Source: a virus
Taxonomy: Duplodnaviria; Caudoviricetes
Virus record (IMG/VR): IMGVR_UViG_2905373006_000003
Span: 16,719-80,718 of that record
Reading direction: 5' to 3' (one strand)
DNA length: 64,000 nt
Shown: positions 3,092 through 48,532 of the stretch, in pieces
How positions within the stretch are numbered: position 1 is the first letter of the stretch
How the letters are laid out: every line of letters starts with the position of its first letter
The notes under the pieces: generated by a model
The model's database searches: none
What the model saw: the letters and a program-made list of their open reading frames with translations, nothing else
What the model was told of the DNA's origin: nothing
Translations under genes and position numbers: made by a program

Positions 3092-4489
3092 TCATCTCCT
3101 AGTTGTGAAGAAACTGCCTTTTTTCTTCTGATATAAATCGCGTAATGCTTGCGTCATGGCATCCACTGTGTCGTCATGGCCAGCAAACGGGAATGTAGTA
3201 ATTTCCTCTACGGTTTCGACAATCCACGGCGCAATATCTTTGTGAGGTAGCCACACATTTCTAGCTTCCCACTCAGCAGTACACGCATGAGCACGAGCAA
3301 CCTTGCTACCATCTGGCTCGACGGGAATTAACCCTGATACGGTTGATTTGAGAGAGTCGATTACAGCAGGGCCATTGGCTTTGTCTTCCACCAGCTTACG
3401 TCGTCCTTCAGGGAATTTTTCAGCTAACCATTTCACCGATTTTAAGGTTTCAGTAAAGCTCATGCGTTTTCTAATTTGATACAGTAGATAAGCGTTTGCG
3501 TCTTTCTTGCCCCATACCTGCCCCACCACATAGTCAGTACCGTCACTGTCTTTAAAGGTCATATCCCAACTATGGATAACCTTATCGAATTTTTCAGGTA
3601 GGTCTTTCGGTAGATAGTACTGAGCAAATTCTTCGTGGAAGATTTGACCATCACCCGGCTTAGGTGATTGTTGGTACATTGCAGACCAAAAGTAATCACC
3701 GAGGATTGCTTTTGTCTCAAGGAGTTTGTCGATTGGGTGTAACTCTGGTACCAACGCTTCTCCTTTCTCATTAATGGCAGGGAATGCAAGCACCTTGGTT
3801 TCAGGCGCTTTTTCTTTTAATTGACCAGACAAATCATCAGTTGCCCATCGAGTGGCCATGATAATTTCACCGCTATTTTTTGATAAACGGGTCTTAAAGG
3901 TCGAAACGTACCAGTTCCAAATTGATTTTTTAACAGTTGGGCTAAGTGCCTCTTTCGAGTTCTTTATCGGGTCATCAATAATGCCGAGGTCAACTTTCTT
4001 ACCCGTTAATGGGCCACCTACCCCCGCACACACATAGCTTCCTTTGTAGTTGGCGATACCGAACTCGTCAGAATTACGTTTAACTGCAATGCCGTTTTCA
4101 GGCCTATTGCCTAACCAACTTTTAGGAAATAGCACGCGATATTCATCGGACATCATAATGCGCTGAACATCGGTATTCATATCACCGGCTAAATCTGAGG
4201 AATAAGACAGCGCACCCACACGCATGTTAGGGTATTTTCCAAAGAAATAAGCGGGAAGATAACGAGAAACAATATCAGACTTACCGTGTTGTGGCGGTGC
4301 CCCTAATATTAATTTAGGGCGCTTACCTGCCATCATATCAATCAAGAACTGGTCGAGCGCATCACATACCGTTTGAGAAAAATGGCTTGTAATGTATTCA
4401 GGGTTTATATACTGAATAAATTCGTGCAAACTACGTCTAGCTATCTCTCTCCTGACTTCTTCATCAAACAAGTCGAAATTGACATCCAT
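3092..4489 (-). CDS. terL: Terminase large subunit
   Basis: PPQHGKS Walker A, IIDDPIK Walker B, C-terminal HDDTVDA nuclease motif; start set to MDVNFD at 4489. Confidence 0.95.
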   Translation of the reverse strand: MDVNFDLFDEEVRREIARRSLHEFIQYINPEYITSHFSQTVCDALDQFLIDMMAGKRPKLILGAPPQHGKSDIVSRYLPAYFFGKYPNMRVGALSYSSDLAGDMNTDVQRIMMSDEYRVLFPKSWLGNRPENGIAVKRNSDEFGIANYKGSYVCAGVGGPLTGKKVDLGIIDDPIKNSKEALSPTVKKSIWNWYVSTFKTRLSKNSGEIIMATRWATDDLSGQLKEKAPETKVLAFPAINEKGEALVPELHPIDKLLETKAILGDYFWSAMYQQSPKPGDGQIFHEEFAQYYLPKDLPEKFDKVIHSWDMTFKDSDGTDYVVGQVWGKKDANAYLLYQIRKRMSFTETLKSVKWLAEKFPEGRRKLVEDKANGPAVIDSLKSTVSGLIPVEPDGSKVARAHACTAEWEARNVWLPHKDIAPWIVETVEEITTFPFAGHDDTVDAMTQALRDLYQKKKGSFFTTRR

Positions 4490-9733: not shown

Positions 9734-10887
9734 TATTTTTTCTCCTTTATCACCGTTGAGGTGGTGCCATCCGCTTTATACACCGTCAGCGTCTGTGTTT
9801 TTGCCGGTTTTCCCCGTTGGCGGCGGGTTCGGGTTACCGGGCCTCTGGCCACTTCCAGTTCAGTGGTATAGCCGCTGCTCCGCTCAAACATATGCCGGGC
9901 TGATGTTATCAGCCAGTCCCCGGATAACTGCCCGAAACCGGATAATTCAATTTTATTACCGGCGGTCAATTGCGGCGTCCCTGCGAGAGTCAGTGAGCCG
10001 TTCTGCTGATATTCGTTATTTTTTGCCAGTGCCGAATCTGCCTTTATCCGAGCACTTTCCGGGTCACCGGCGCGACTGTTGACCTTCAGTGTGTCTGCGC
10101 TGACGGTTTTTCCCCCGCTGAGTTGTTTATCACTCTCACGGGTTCCTCCGTCAGCCTCATAGACAATTAATTTTTTCTCTTTACTGTTCTGGTGTTTGAC
10201 TTTTGCAGACTGGTAAATCCGGTTGATGGTATCACGCAGGGAAAAACGGGCGATATCCTGCGGTGTCAGTTGTCTGACCGGCTCCTGACTGCGCAGAGAG
10301 GTCAGGTGAGAAAAAATCAGCCGGTCACTGACAATTTTCACGGCATAACCATATTCACCGGCCAGGCGGCGCAAAAATCCCACATCCGTTTCCGCATACT
10401 GTGTAATCCGATCAATTTTGACAGGCTCAATGGTGCCGACCAGTTTCAGCTGATGTTTTTTGGCAATGCGTCCGGCAATGGCGGCCAGTGTGGTGTTTTC
10501 AAAACCCCGGCTGGATTTTGTCCGCAGCGCCTGATTCACCGAGGCAGCCACACCTCTGACGGACACAACCGAAGGGGGGGCACTGACCTCGATTTCATCA
10601 ATGGAGAATGTGCCGCAGGACAGCAATGTTTCGCCTTTATAGCCCATTTTCAGCGTGAGCGTGTCACCTTTTCCCGGATACCATTTATCCAGCCAGCGAC
10701 CGTCCGAATCCTCCAACTCCACTTCAATGGTGTCCGATTCACTTTTGATGTTATCGGTGTAAGTGACGCGTGTGACATACGGTGCAATATCGGTGGTGAT
10801 ATTTTTCTGAAGATACCACAGCGTAAATACCGGACTCAGGACATCCGTGACGCCGGTATTTACCGGCAGGGTGTTTATCTCAGCCAT
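9733..10887 (-). CDS. Late control D / baseplate hub protein
   Basis: QYAETDVGFLRRLA motif; synteny X-D-V. Confidence 0.9.
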   Translation of the reverse strand: MAEINTLPVNTGVTDVLSPVFTLWYLQKNITTDIAPYVTRVTYTDNIKSESDTIEVELEDSDGRWLDKWYPGKGDTLTLKMGYKGETLLSCGTFSIDEIEVSAPPSVVSVRGVAASVNQALRTKSSRGFENTTLAAIAGRIAKKHQLKLVGTIEPVKIDRITQYAETDVGFLRRLAGEYGYAVKIVSDRLIFSHLTSLRSQEPVRQLTPQDIARFSLRDTINRIYQSAKVKHQNSKEKKLIVYEADGGTRESDKQLSGGKTVSADTLKVNSRAGDPESARIKADSALAKNNEYQQNGSLTLAGTPQLTAGNKIELSGFGQLSGDWLITSARHMFERSSGYTTELEVARGPVTRTRRQRGKPAKTQTLTVYKADGTTSTVIKEKK

Positions 10888-45192: not shown

Positions 45193-45741
45193 TCATGAAT
45201 AATGATGCTTTCTGTCAAACTCATCACACATAGGCCAATAGAGCATAAATTCAGCAATAGATAACCATGTTTTAACTCGTCTCCTATAAGTCGATAGTGA
45301 CATTGAAGGGTGCTTTTCATGTAGCTCTAACGCTATGCCGAAATATGATTTTTTATATACATAATACTGTTTCAGTATTTCTAATAATCCTTGATCTTTT
45401 TCGAAAACAGCACAAATGACCTTGTCCATTTTTCCACCTTCAATATCACTACAGAACCACATATTGCTAAGTGTTTTCTTATTTTGGTACTCCTCCAAGA
45501 AAAGCTGTAAGGTTTCTTCTGATAGCCCTGATTTTTTCATTCTTCGCATAGCATCTTTGAGGGCTTTCTTTGTGATTTTTGGGTCTGATAATAATCGCTG
45601 AAAAATACCAGAGGCTTGCGGTGATTTACTAAATGCAGCCCAACAACCCCACATTTTTAATCGCCCCCGGATCCATGTACTTTCTAATGTGCGCAATCTT
45701 AAATACTCACCACTCTTGCCACTTGTCTCTGGATAAATCAT
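45193..45741 (-). CDS. DUF1133-family protein, putative late antiterminator (Q position)
   Basis: MIYP...GKSGE.LRL.TLES.WI.G.L.MWG.W; position before pR' and lysis. Confidence 0.75.
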   Translation of the reverse strand: MIYPETSGKSGEYLRLRTLESTWIRGRLKMWGCWAAFSKSPQASGIFQRLLSDPKITKKALKDAMRRMKKSGLSEETLQLFLEEYQNKKTLSNMWFCSDIEGGKMDKVICAVFEKDQGLLEILKQYYVYKKSYFGIALELHEKHPSMSLSTYRRRVKTWLSIAEFMLYWPMCDEFDRKHHYS

Positions 45742-45775: not shown

Positions 45776-46087
45776 CTAGACGCGACAAGCGCGTAATTCC
45801 ATTACTTCAATTTTTGTTTGCTCGAGCAATTCTGCTTCAGAACCATGAATTTCTTGCCATGATTTAGGTGATGCATGAAAGCCGGTTTCATAACACGCCC
45901 TATGATGTGGCGGACACAGTGGTAAAACATCTGTATGACTTGCTCGTTGTGCCATTCCCTGCCCTGTTCTAACATGATGTATTTCCGCTCTACTTGCCCC
46001 AAGCCCCATATTGCGACAACAAATACAACCCAGTTCCGCTACATCTGATAGCCACTGTCTTTCTTCTTTGGTCTTTGATTTGATCAT
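45776..46087 (-). CDS. Ref-family HNH-like nuclease
   Basis: LGCICC...EIHHVRTGQG...LPLCPPHHR...FH. Confidence 0.8.
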   Translation of the reverse strand: MIKSKTKEERQWLSDVAELGCICCRNMGLGASRAEIHHVRTGQGMAQRASHTDVLPLCPPHHRACYETGFHASPKSWQEIHGSEAELLEQTKIEVMELRACRV

Positions 46088-46098
46088 TGGTCTTGCCT

Positions 46099-46692
46099 CT
46101 ACGTAAAACTTAATAATTGAGATACTGCATTTTCTACAGCTTTTTGAGTGGGGAATTGCTTACGAAGGATAAAATTCCAAAGCACATCGAGTGTGGCTTT
46201 GTAGAGTTCGCTAAATGCTAGGTCATCCATATTTGCAAAGCTGATTGATTTAGCGACACGACGTAAACTACCGTCAGGCATTTCAAACGTGTCGTAATAA
46301 CCGGCTTGCTCTACAACCCAATAGCGAAAAGCATCAAATGATTTTGTTGCTGAGATATTTTGCGCACGTTTTTGTGCGACTTCTTCTAGATAGATATCGG
46401 ATGCTGATAAGAGCACGTCAGCATTATCCGTGTAATATGAAAGGAATGTGATGTAACCACGCACAAGCTCTTTTTCTTCAGGTGAAATGGTACCGCCAAC
46501 TGGTTCCCAATATTCATAGCCTAAGTTGAGTAATGCGAAGTATTTACGATGAAATCGAGGGTTACGGGCTTTCTTAAAATTTGCTGAAAGCACATCACCA
46601 CATTTGATTTTTGAATGCAGAAAATCTCTCGTAACAGGATTGGCCGGTACAAGAGTATCGTTAGACATTTTGATAAAGTTATGCTGTGCCAT
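46099..46692 (-). CDS. DUF1367-family (NinB-like) protein
   Basis: RNPRFHRKYFALLNLGYEYWEP...SISFANMD..F. Confidence 0.85.
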   Translation of the reverse strand: MAQHNFIKMSNDTLVPANPVTRDFLHSKIKCGDVLSANFKKARNPRFHRKYFALLNLGYEYWEPVGGTISPEEKELVRGYITFLSYYTDNADVLLSASDIYLEEVAQKRAQNISATKSFDAFRYWVVEQAGYYDTFEMPDGSLRRVAKSISFANMDDLAFSELYKATLDVLWNFILRKQFPTQKAVENAVSQLLSFT

Positions 46693-46779
46693 ACTTGACT
46701 CTCAGTTGACACAGCAAATGTTTAGGATTGGGTGTTCAGACCAATGGATTTATTTTATCAGAAATGCTTTTTTCTTCAA
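46682..46779 (-). promoter_or_regulatory. Promoter and self-inhibited structured leader of DUF1367 operon
   Basis: TTGAAG-16-TAAAAT with extended TG; 5' hairpin ATTGG-TCTGAACAC-CCAAT; 10-bp stem TGCTGTGTCA/TGGCACAGCA over the start codon. Confidence 0.65.
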
Positions 46780-46805
46780 AAGAAGATAATTTTAAGTTTA
46801 AAAAA

Positions 46806-47693
46806 TCACATAAATAGTTCTTTAAGTTGAGATATGTAAGGTGTTATTACAGATAATACAGATGCAGAACCACCAGCAATAGTCATTATTTCGACTAGTT
46901 TTGTCATAACACCAGTTTGGTCTTTAACACTTTTCATCGACTCAACATGTGGGATTATATCATCAATAATTTGAGTGTCTTTTCCCTGCTTTTTTATCTC
47001 TAATAATTCAGAAAGTAGTTTATCTATTAAATCATGAGATTGAACTTGTAAATTTTGATTAAAATTTTCGCTGGCATTAGCAACATTAGCATTACCATAA
47101 ATATTGGTGTTAAATATATGTGCTATTTTTTCCTTTTGTTCATCATTCAAATTAGACAATTTGATATCCTCAATATTTGAAATTTTACTTTCTACTTCTA
47201 ATGTGAATTGTAATATTCTGGTTTTAATTCCATCAAGAATAGCTGTATATAAATGAGCCGGCGACTCACTCCAAATCCTCATAACATCTTGATGTGTAAA
47301 ACCTTTAGATATTAAGCTCACAATGTGTGTATCCCATGGCCTTTCCATCATAATAGAATCATGTGAAGTTAACTCCTCAATAGATGAGACACTATTCGCA
47401 ACACGCATTACACCATAATTTTTTTGAACGGGCTCTGGAAATTTAGTTATATCTATTGGGTAATTTTTCCAAATATTATAACCATCCGTAAAATCCCCTT
47501 TAACTACACAATTAAGTATTCTGTATTCAGGGATTTCATCTGTATTTTTATATCCATTAAGTTCATCATTAACCCATCTTATAAAATTTTCATTTTTTAT
47601 TTTATGAGCTAAATATAAACATTTTCTTAATAAATCAGATAGTTGAACTTTTGAATTAATGCAATCATTCTGTATTTCAATGAGTATTGACAT
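46806..47693 (-). CDS. AbiTii-domain protein (candidate defence moron)
   Basis: IQNDCINSKVQLSDLLRKC..LA.K.......WVN.ELNGY....IPEYR; very AT-rich. Confidence 0.75.
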   Translation of the reverse strand: MSILIEIQNDCINSKVQLSDLLRKCLYLAHKIKNENFIRWVNDELNGYKNTDEIPEYRILNCVVKGDFTDGYNIWKNYPIDITKFPEPVQKNYGVMRVANSVSSIEELTSHDSIMMERPWDTHIVSLISKGFTHQDVMRIWSESPAHLYTAILDGIKTRILQFTLEVESKISNIEDIKLSNLNDEQKEKIAHIFNTNIYGNANVANASENFNQNLQVQSHDLIDKLLSELLEIKKQGKDTQIIDDIIPHVESMKSVKDQTGVMTKLVEIMTIAGGSASVLSVITPYISQLKELFM

Positions 47694-48301: not shown

Positions 48302-48478
48302 TTACCTCGTCGTTTTTTGTGGTTTAACCTTAGGTTGATAAGGTGCTTTTGTTCTCGCTCTTGCTAACGCATGGAGACGGTCAATATGACACTGTGTATG
48401 GTCTAACCCATCATCAGGTAATATGGGGTGATTATCACGAACAAGAAATTCGTGAGTAAGAGAGTCTTTAATTAACAT
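48302..48478 (-). CDS. 58-aa hypothetical protein
   Basis: Read by hand: AGAGGCAAGACC-ATG, MLIKDSLTHEFLVRDNHP...KPQKTTR. Confidence 0.65.
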   Translation of the reverse strand: MLIKDSLTHEFLVRDNHPILPDDGLDHTQCHIDRLHALARARTKAPYQPKVKPQKTTR

Positions 48479-48532
48479 GGTCTTGCCTCTAATATTTAAC
48501 TTAATGGCTTGGTCGAGCCCTAATTAACTTAT

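Follow-up and report, generated by a model that had tools for sequence, protein, structure and literature searches.

We describe a candidate RNA switch in a lambdoid prophage, in which the leader of the operon encoding a Q-like late antiterminator (here the nin-Q operon) is predicted to be translationally locked and to be opened by RNA from the start of the early pL transcript. The DNA analysed (the window) is 64,000 nucleotides (nt) long and forms part of an 80.7-kilobase (kb) IMG/VR provirus record, IMGVR_UViG_2905373006_000003. The closest named relatives of this record are prophages of Proteus species, and by gene content the region around the leader is a lambdoid early region. A lock of this kind and its trigger had been proposed from the letters of the window alone (the sequence-only reading). 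We find that the pairing itself between the two leaders is well supported by sequence comparison across relatives. It is also fairly probable, in our judgement, that the pL leader RNA activates translation of the first operon gene in trans, in an anti-antisense, toehold-like manner, with expression of the Q-like gene following downstream. The comparison covers the leader structures, the complementarity, the conservation and joint variation of both, and the promoter positions; an encounter of the two RNAs in vivo, an activating outcome and the dependence of Q on it are steps that we infer.

The sequence-only reading placed a promoter, two hairpins and the translation start of the operon next to one another on the minus strand, and all of these are present. 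The promoter (46752..46779) consists of TTGAAG (46779-46774) and TAAAAT (46757-46752) separated by 16 nt, the latter preceded by TG; it is σ70-like and predicts a transcription start near 46745 and a leader of 53 nt. The transcript would open with hairpin 1 (46727..46745), in which ATTGG (46745-41) and CCAAT (46731-27) form a stem of 5 base pairs (bp) around the 9-nt loop TCTGAACAC (46740-32). This loop (UCUGAACAC) contains a conserved CUGAACA, the core TGAAC being nearly invariant; its CUGA is, by our own reading, of the YUNR type, and we propose the loop as the site that pL RNA would contact first. A linker, or 'toehold' (CCUAAACAUU, 46726-46717), with a mean unpaired probability of 0.55 when the leader is folded alone, lies between hairpins 1 and 2 and within the 18-nt core that pairs with the pL RNA. 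In hairpin 2, the lock (46682..46716), TGCTGTGTCA (46716-07) pairs with TGGCACAGCA (46691-82) over 10 bp with one G-U, so that the Shine-Dalgarno (SD) sequence is enclosed and the AUG is covered. The loop holds the SD, GAGAG (46703-46699); the ATG begins at 46692, and the 3' arm comprises the UG of the AUG and the next 8 coding nt. Hairpin 2 alone has a folding energy of -17.8 kcal/mol, and in the leader without its trigger the unpaired probability is 0.34 for the AUG and 0.0 for positions +4 to +10. The target leader contains an intramolecular helix that occludes the translation start, as anti-antisense activation calls for.

Conservation of this structure was examined in 78 IMG/VR loci collected via the DUF1367 protein encoded by the first gene of the operon, with L043 and L080 dropped because their gene start is cut off. 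The IMG/VR loci hold 61 distinct versions of a 145-nt stretch made up of 130 nt upstream and the first 15 coding nt, and in the 78 loci conservation extends from hairpin 1 to the ATG, with all sequence upstream of that being mosaic. Among 43 distinct leaders the two helices are paired in 95.9% of cells (slid controls, 27-44%), and the covariation score was reached by none of 500 shuffles. Compensatory changes occur in 5 of 15 leader pairs, comprising 4 of the 5 stem pairs of hairpin 1 and one pair of helix 2, which is itself paired in 95.1% of cells. Variation in the coding 3' arm of hairpin 2 consists mostly of U-G, C-G and U-A alternatives, and Rosenbergiella shows a complete exchange of U-A for C-G. 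Just before hairpin 1, a 12-nt window contains TANNNT in 73 of 76 distinct upstream segments, drawn from the IMG/VR loci, the genome loci and six named phages, as against 23/76 and 24/76 in control windows further upstream; the three remaining segments have CATAAT, CATACT or AAAAAT at this place. Promoter function thus appears to be kept at the 5' edge of the leader despite the mosaic upstream sequence, and on these comparative grounds we take the leader to be a conserved structured RNA that starts at a promoter.

Three further observations concern this edge and the leader as a unit. In a related prophage assembled from an RNA library (public run X1), 1,328 nt of the window are replaced by 1,499 other letters, and one junction falls exactly at 46745, the first base of hairpin 1, which indicates that the 5' edge of the leader is a recombination boundary. 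A second copy of the whole leader is found in tandem in L013 (8596-8662 and 9935-10001, 97% identical) and in inverted orientation in L170 (16763-16811). In L177 (Providencia huashanensis, ~9900-9960) the leader promoter overlaps a CTGT-N8-ACAG palindrome resembling a LexA box, and only ~1 kb separates the DUF1367-like and cI-like genes.

The partner of the leader, which we call the trigger (52748..52777, plus strand), begins at about +10 of the pL transcript. Its core ACACAGCAAGUGUUUAGG (52748-52765) is complementary to leader positions 46726-46709; the pairing had been put at 18 nt with one G-U, in agreement with a match to plus-strand 46709-46726 at 17 of 18 positions. Three nt past the core, GUGUUCAGA (52769-52777) is, as had also been claimed, complementary to the hairpin-1 loop, and its letters are identical to 46732-46740. 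Local alignment of the two sites gives 27 identities in 30 positions with one 2-nt gap. Because these direct DNA repeats are transcribed in opposite directions, their RNAs are complementary, and the second component of anti-antisense activation, a separately transcribed RNA complementary to the inhibitory strand, is found here; in the window it spans 8 of the arm's 10 nt.

This match stands out from its background. The 18-mer pattern occurs at only two sites in the 80.7-kb record (2 forward, 0 reverse and 0 with a reversed control). Over 4,262 windows on both strands of the 64-kb window, the leader has its best non-self duplex partner in the pL site (-43.4 kcal/mol), compared with a background of -17.5 (standard deviation (sd) 4.8) and a next best of -34.1. 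Cofolding, which the sequence-only reading had offered as a check, bore it out: an 86-nt leader and a 124-nt pL leader gain -20.1 kcal/mol by pairing, with hairpin 2 opened, and dinucleotide shuffles of the 5' 45 nt of the pL RNA gain only -5.95 (sd 2.73), none of 200 reaching the observed value. In silico, the unpaired probability of +4 to +10 rises from 0.0 to 0.74 in the dimer ensemble.

The trigger was said to lie in a transcript repressed by CI, and the arrangement of the region agrees. TTGACA and TAATAT, 16 nt apart at 52703-52730, lie directly after cI and its terminator and bear operator-like inverted repeats that overlap the promoter (52687..52731, plus strand). Since the promoter is 3' of cI and its repeats (I6 and I15) are common to the cI/cro intergenic region, we identify it as pL. 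Beyond the trigger, the minimum free energy (MFE) fold contains a long terminator-like hairpin with a U run (52785..52861; arms 52785-52798 and 52841-52854, T run 52856-52861). RNAalifold of 14 pL leaders recovers the stem and U run, with compensatory changes in 10 of 27 pairs, and leaves the trigger largely unpaired save for a weak local hairpin of 5 bp. A simple terminator scan did not report the 52785-52861 hairpin, because its loop is long. With hairpin and U run placed after the trigger, initiation at pL would yield an RNA of ~120 nt with the pairing region at its 5' end, which would be the usual layout of a base-pairing small RNA (sRNA). Many relatives also carry this module after the trigger; others are without it and have a different terminator further on.

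Several features of the pL leaders are recorded here in their own right. The interior of the long hairpin (52799-52840) is strongly conserved (GGAGGAGAACC ... ATGATTACCAC), and an inner helix within it covaries markedly (AU:10/GC:4, CG:6/AU:5). In L078, a match to isrB (RF01386, 38.4 bits, gathering 35) at 3276-3361 on the plus strand, opposite to pL, covers a module with the CCCACCGAAGTGGG terminator and GACCAAAGC; the same module occurs in the pL leaders of many relatives. In Rfam, the 3' end of cI with its terminator (52605-52679) matches OmrA-B (27.8 bits, gathering 40) and AgvB (16.9, gathering 56) below threshold, which probably reflects terminator resemblance only. Further along, at 52918-52933, is a boxB-like hairpin, GCUCG GAAAGA CGGGC, preceded by a GGCAAGACC-type motif; by our reading of relatives its stem varies in a compensatory manner (GCUCG/CGAGC, GCCCG/CGGGC, CCCCG/CGGGG, CCUAG/CUAGG), and it is present in two or three tandem copies in some of them. 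This hairpin may be a nut-like site, and with its compensatory stem a protein antitermination system is possible. The earlier claim that no N-like gene is evident is thus weakly supported: four open reading frames (ORFs) of the pL operon were tested and none matched an antiterminator family, and the boxB-like hairpin points the other way.

Loss of the complementarity in relatives had been named beforehand as an outcome that would speak against the sequence-only reading; relatives keep the trigger, and the two sites change together. A trigger is found at the pL leader in 74 of the 78 IMG/VR loci, the 4 misses being loci with under 4.6 kb upstream. Among 33 genome loci it is found in 25, and 2 of the 8 misses are short contigs. 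It lies after the promoter next to the repressor gene or in a non-coding stretch on the pL side, always in the orientation that gives complementary RNAs. By a count made by eye, it is directly downstream of about ten different promoter/operator types, which indicates that it is a feature of the pL transcript rather than of a single immunity type. Fifteen lineages carry different, mutually matching leader and pL sequences; they include Proteus, Morganella-type, Xenorhabdus/Photorhabdus, Rouxiella, Rosenbergiella/BUCT708 and Providencia huashanensis and, among phages, Gifsy-1/2, mEp237, SEN34 and the Rac-like phage 666R9. The linker varies from lineage to lineage but fits the pL site of its own lineage; in Xenorhabdus/Photorhabdus the leader alone carries an insertion of 3 nt. 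Over the stretches compared, Gifsy-1 and Gifsy-2 do not differ in either the leader or the pL leader.

Specificity was examined with a 15 x 15 RNAduplex matrix, in which cognate pairs average -41.7 kcal/mol and all others -26.7 (sd 7.6). Ten leaders have their cognate trigger in first place and 5 in second, the better one in the latter cases being that of a close relative, and none of 20,000 random pairings reached the observed cognate mean. In all 15 lineages the lock has the same layout, with the SD in the loop, the AUG paired and the trigger overlapping 4-9 nt of the inhibitory arm. Of the transitions by which leaders and their own triggers differ, 13 events are G-U compatible in the RNA sense proposed and 3 are not (L040, L074 and L177; counted by hand, one-sided binomial ~0.01). 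These relatives came from loci found with a protein seed, blastn in distant mode of both regions against the phage collection having given no match; a covariance model (R1) matched 2 of 150 other sampled genomes of the order, under strict filters and with few candidates scored, a figure that is little guide to distribution.

The cryptic prophage DLP12 of E. coli K-12 presents a separate case. Upstream of ylcH/ybcN (L186 8318-8371) it keeps the leader, with a 7-bp hairpin and a CCUGAACAA loop; an arm pairs with the ylcH start, and the lock stands in front of ybcN-rusA-quuD. The trigger was not found in the K-12 chromosome, where the search returned only the self match and counts like those of a reversed control. 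From these sequences, the DLP12 leader reads as an orphan lock.

Taken as a mechanism, the arrangement would work as follows. The nin-Q operon, comprising genes for DUF1367, a Ref-like nuclease and the Q-like antiterminator, would have its own promoter and its mRNA would be made in a translationally locked form, the 10-bp hairpin pairing the AUG and first codons with the upstream arm. Once CI is inactivated, pL would fire and the first ~40 nt of its transcript would be released within a short terminated leader RNA. This RNA would pair with the hairpin-1 loop, the linker and most of the inhibitory arm, displacing the arm and freeing the start region and giving ribosomes access to the first gene, whose translation would in turn lead to expression of the Q-like gene through the close spacing of the genes and relief of polarity on the untranslated mRNA. 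In all 15 lineages the trans RNA would pair with the strand masking the AUG and leave both the SD and the AUG uncovered, which is the geometry of activation and not of repression.

Published work on Gifsy-1 bears on the promoter. According to the parts of that study used here, the Q operon transcript has a mapped start ~1,600 bases upstream of antQ, and the mRNAs of antQ and of the operon's second gene rise when an antirepressor is expressed (PMC4825925). In the Gifsy-1 record 1,556 nt separate the DUF1367 ATG from the Q ATG downstream of it; with ~51 nt more for the leader, the predicted start lies ~1,607 nt upstream of Q and fits the mapped one. Public sequencing runs give a sparser picture. 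Run X9 provides patchy contigs of low depth (7.2 for the leader contig, 46520-46732; 15.3 for cI; 0 for the pL leader bin), and the raw reads of runs X21 and X24 include none on the stretch. Run X1 has contigs of up to 117 kb (aligned piece 17.7 kb) and looks like DNA, and we do not take it as evidence of transcription.

A number of points weigh against activation of nin-Q by the pL RNA. The SD is not sequestered by the lock (unpaired probability 0.9); lying in the loop, it leaves the block to rest on the AUG and downstream codons only. In the dimer ensemble, part of the region freed by pairing folds back locally, the AUG being unpaired with a probability of 0.13 and the SD with 0.54. No convincing partner was found within 10 kb in 6 of the 33 genome loci (L154, L161, L162, L170, L173 and L179), whose immunity regions are unexamined. 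The complementary cores of the E. coli and Salmonella phages are short (11-17 nt), and the homologous site of mEp237 does not have the lowest RNAduplex energy, other windows of the locus lying below it. More generally, whole-locus scans are noisy for the GC-richer leaders of Morganella and mEp237, where the cognate site is not clearly the top window, so that for these leaders we argue from homologous position and exact matches. Moreover, the trigger of mEp237 and some relatives lies ~100 nt downstream of the promoter behind another conserved element and so is not at the 5' end of the primary transcript, and RNA processing may take place in pL leaders of this type. The asymmetry in favour of wobble-compatible differences is suggestive only, because the C-to-T bias linked to transcription points the same way. 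The rise of antQ operon mRNA on Gifsy-1 derepression is explained equally well by read-through from pR, and the public RNA-run data are patchy, DNA-like or empty. As a side observation, the element that precedes the trigger in mEp237-type phages (GAAGTAGCCG ... GGCATAYGAA; L180 1110-1180 for mEp237, and also L065, L077, L078, L079 and L082) had no match in Rfam.

The two RNAs might also pair to an end other than nin-Q activation. Their duplex could be a substrate for RNase III that lowers the amount of one or both, the DsrA-rpoS duplex being described as creating an RNase III site in the portions of that work on which we draw (PMC2831331). Alternatively, leader RNA present before induction could act as a sponge for leaky pL transcripts, or it could sequester the ACAGCAA of the trigger, which can otherwise pair with UUGCUGU in the 5' part of the pL terminator stem; the terminator would then be favoured and the pL operon, with its kil-type genes, kept silent in lysogens. 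Everything that argues for pairing supports such outcomes as well. However, the activation geometry shared by the 15 lineages speaks against them as a group, and for the last variant the pL terminator forms without a partner in both the MFE and the consensus folds, and its module is absent from many relatives that keep the trigger. We consider an outcome of this kind unlikely. The match might instead belong to the DNA, as binding sites for one phage DNA-binding protein or as boundaries of a recombination module. The sites are direct DNA repeats, each just downstream of a promoter, the 5' edge of the leader is a mosaic junction, and a co-evolving protein would also make two sites vary together. 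Yet hairpins 1 and 2 show compensatory changes at the RNA level, the matched segment is without dyad symmetry, and the match varies in length from 11 to 22 nt; the one-site insertion of 3 nt in Xenorhabdus/Photorhabdus is tolerable as an RNA bulge but not in a shared protein site. The bias of leader/trigger differences towards G-U-compatible ones (13 versus 3) also favours RNA, and the match takes in the arm that pairs with the coding start, which relates three segments to one another in a way that has no rationale at the DNA level. An explanation at the level of DNA therefore seems to us quite improbable.

A similarity that is functionless, being a relic of ancestry or due to chance, would be easiest to accept for the E. 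coli and Salmonella phages, whose exact matches of 11-12 nt are individually non-significant at the scale of the locus (BLAST E 0.05-0.2). Drift, however, would cause the two sites to diverge within a genome as they do between lineages, whereas each pair matches (0/20,000 permutations), and the match is always in the pL-side leader, in the same orientation and to the same part of the nin leader; we regard this explanation as very improbable indeed. Among candidates that were tried and rejected, a lambda-type nut pair does not apply, since the copies are direct repeats on divergently transcribed strands whose RNAs are complementary and not alike, and the 4 pL ORFs gave no antiterminator match. 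A cis-encoded antisense RNA of the OOP, aQ or sar type was set aside because the sites are 6 kb apart. A plus-strand promoter facing the leader was likewise rejected: the only candidate hexamers have a 14-nt spacer, the promoter scan found none, and the region is the start of a coding sequence. Also rejected was a minus-strand promoter for a leader-sense RNA at the pL site, there being no conserved -10 among the variants.

Activation of nin-Q by the pL leader RNA leads to a broader proposal, which we put forward more tentatively. A sizeable group of lambdoid prophages of Enterobacterales might time their late development by an RNA AND-gate and not by antitermination of the N type, a scheme that would extend to Gifsy-, Rac- and mEp237-like prophages and to their relatives in Proteus, Providencia, Morganella, Xenorhabdus and Photorhabdus. 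The nin-Q operon would have its own promoter, SOS-controlled in appearance in some relatives, and would remain untranslated until unlocked by the first ~40 nt of the pL transcript. The lock would insulate Q from read-through of upstream moron, defence and antirepressor genes. Key-lock pairs would also provide specificity, identical pairs, as in Gifsy-1 and Gifsy-2, coupling co-resident prophages and different pairs keeping them independent.

Should the pairing act in the way that its geometry suggests, it would add a missing regulatory step in prophages without a recognisable N protein, and it would explain how Q, premature expression of which kills the host, can be preceded by variable moron and defence genes and by a promoter that is constitutive or under SOS control. 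The switch would also be a natural counterpart of the engineered toehold switch, with a ready set of key-lock pairs that match each other and are largely orthogonal. Both leader and trigger are carried by Gifsy-1/2 of Salmonella Typhimurium and by mEp237 of E. coli, so the proposal is directly testable in standard laboratory systems and in existing transcriptome and RNA-interactome data. In DLP12, a lock for which the genome yielded no matching key may bear on a possible silence of the K-12 nin-Q operon.

The genes around the two sites are arranged as follows. On the minus strand, DUF1367 (46099..46692), a recombination mediator of the NinB/Orf family (Pfam PF07105, E 1.1e-83; phrog_319), is the first gene of the operon. 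A Ref-like RecA-dependent nuclease gene (45776..46087; Pfam PF16786, PHROG Ref-like/HNH) begins 11 nt past its stop codon, and the Q-like late antiterminator gene (DUF1133, 45193..45741) follows (Pfam PF06576, E 1.3e-53; phrog_753, labelled 'anti-termination protein Q-like', E 2.4e-56), with an additional weak match to Phage_antitermQ. Upstream of the leader on the same strand are an AbiTii-domain moron (46806-47693), a gene in the YdaT/cII position together with O-like and DnaB-like replication genes between AbiTii and cro, and the cro-like gene (51511-51768). The cI-type repressor gene (51873-52631, plus strand) has helix-turn-helix and S24 domain matches, and the terminator scan reported a terminator directly 3' of it (52652-52673). 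A near-identical ribosome-binding stretch, AGAGGCAAGACCA followed by ATG, recurs at 46088-46101, 48478-48491, 50998-51011 and 53739-53757 and marks the starts of several early genes in both transcription arms.

Searches of known RNA families gave no name to either leader. Rfam at gathering thresholds returned no match in the whole window (isrK, isrB and C4 included) and none at E<=1 on 46600-46850; on 52600-53000 it gave only sub-threshold matches over or beside the cI terminator and promoter region. Our searches of the literature turned up no description of this leader or its pairing, and existing sRNA lists may already contain the pL leader RNA. In the sections drawn on here, a 2025 review of phage sRNAs does not include a pL-leader RNA that unlocks nin-Q (PMC12197685). 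Trans RNAs that open locked leaders are already known, from the rpoS activators and from IsrK in Gifsy-1, and the new element would be a pL-leader RNA unlocking nin-Q.

The closest parallel is IsrK, an sRNA of Gifsy-1 that, as described in the parts of the report used here, opens the inactive orf45-anrP mRNA in trans with expression of a Q-like antiterminator as the outcome (PMC4825925). In both cases a prophage RNA acts in trans on an inactive prophage mRNA and translation of the first ORF switches on downstream genes, as proposed here for nin-Q. By the same partial account, isrK lies downstream of antQ and its transcript has a regulator and a target isoform, whereas here the regulator would be the 5' end of the pL transcript and the target the own leader of the Q operon, ~6 kb away. 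Gifsy-1 carries both the IsrK system and the present leader and trigger.

N and nut of lambda and put of HK022 act in cis on the transcribing polymerase, with the same RNA sense in the pL and pR transcripts. The element proposed here likewise sits in the early pL transcript and would govern the passage from early to later expression in lambdoid phages, but its two sites give complementary RNAs and it would act in trans on translation. OOP, aQ, sar and c4 are inhibitory phage RNAs, cis-encoded or within one operon, and aQ acts on Q expression, according to the sections of the review cited (PMC12197685). Like them, the pL leader RNA would be a small phage RNA tuning lysis and lysogeny by base pairing; unlike them, as they are described there, it would act in trans, being encoded 6 kb away on the divergent early operon, and has a predicted activating geometry. 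StxS is reported to be a short terminated pR' transcript that lysogens make from the late promoter and that has host and toxin mRNAs as its targets (PMC7547250). It resembles the present case, on that description, in that the regulatory RNA is the terminated 5' part of a phage operon transcript. The RNA proposed here differs from StxS, so described, in coming from a repressed early promoter and in targeting the phage's own Q operon.

The activators of rpoS are Hfq-dependent sRNAs that are expressed from dedicated genes and serve a stress regulon of the host. As in the portions of the DsrA/RprA/ArcZ-rpoS work on which we draw, a hairpin in the 5' untranslated region would here block the start until a trans RNA paired with its inhibitory strand and relieved the block (PMC2831331). 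Unlike in rpoS, activation would come from the 5' leader of an early operon of the phage and act on a phage-borne target, with a matched pair particular to each lineage. The nearest match in layout is an engineered one. Synthetic toehold switches have a single-stranded toehold 5' of a hairpin that holds the ribosome-binding site in its loop and the AUG in its 3' arm, and a trigger unwinds the 5' arm. The nin-Q leaders have this same layout, and their lineage-specific pairs are largely orthogonal in the duplex matrix. They differ from the engineered devices in being natural, in having an extra 5' hairpin loop as a second contact and a shorter stem (7-12 bp), and in that the trigger is embedded in a longer structured RNA.

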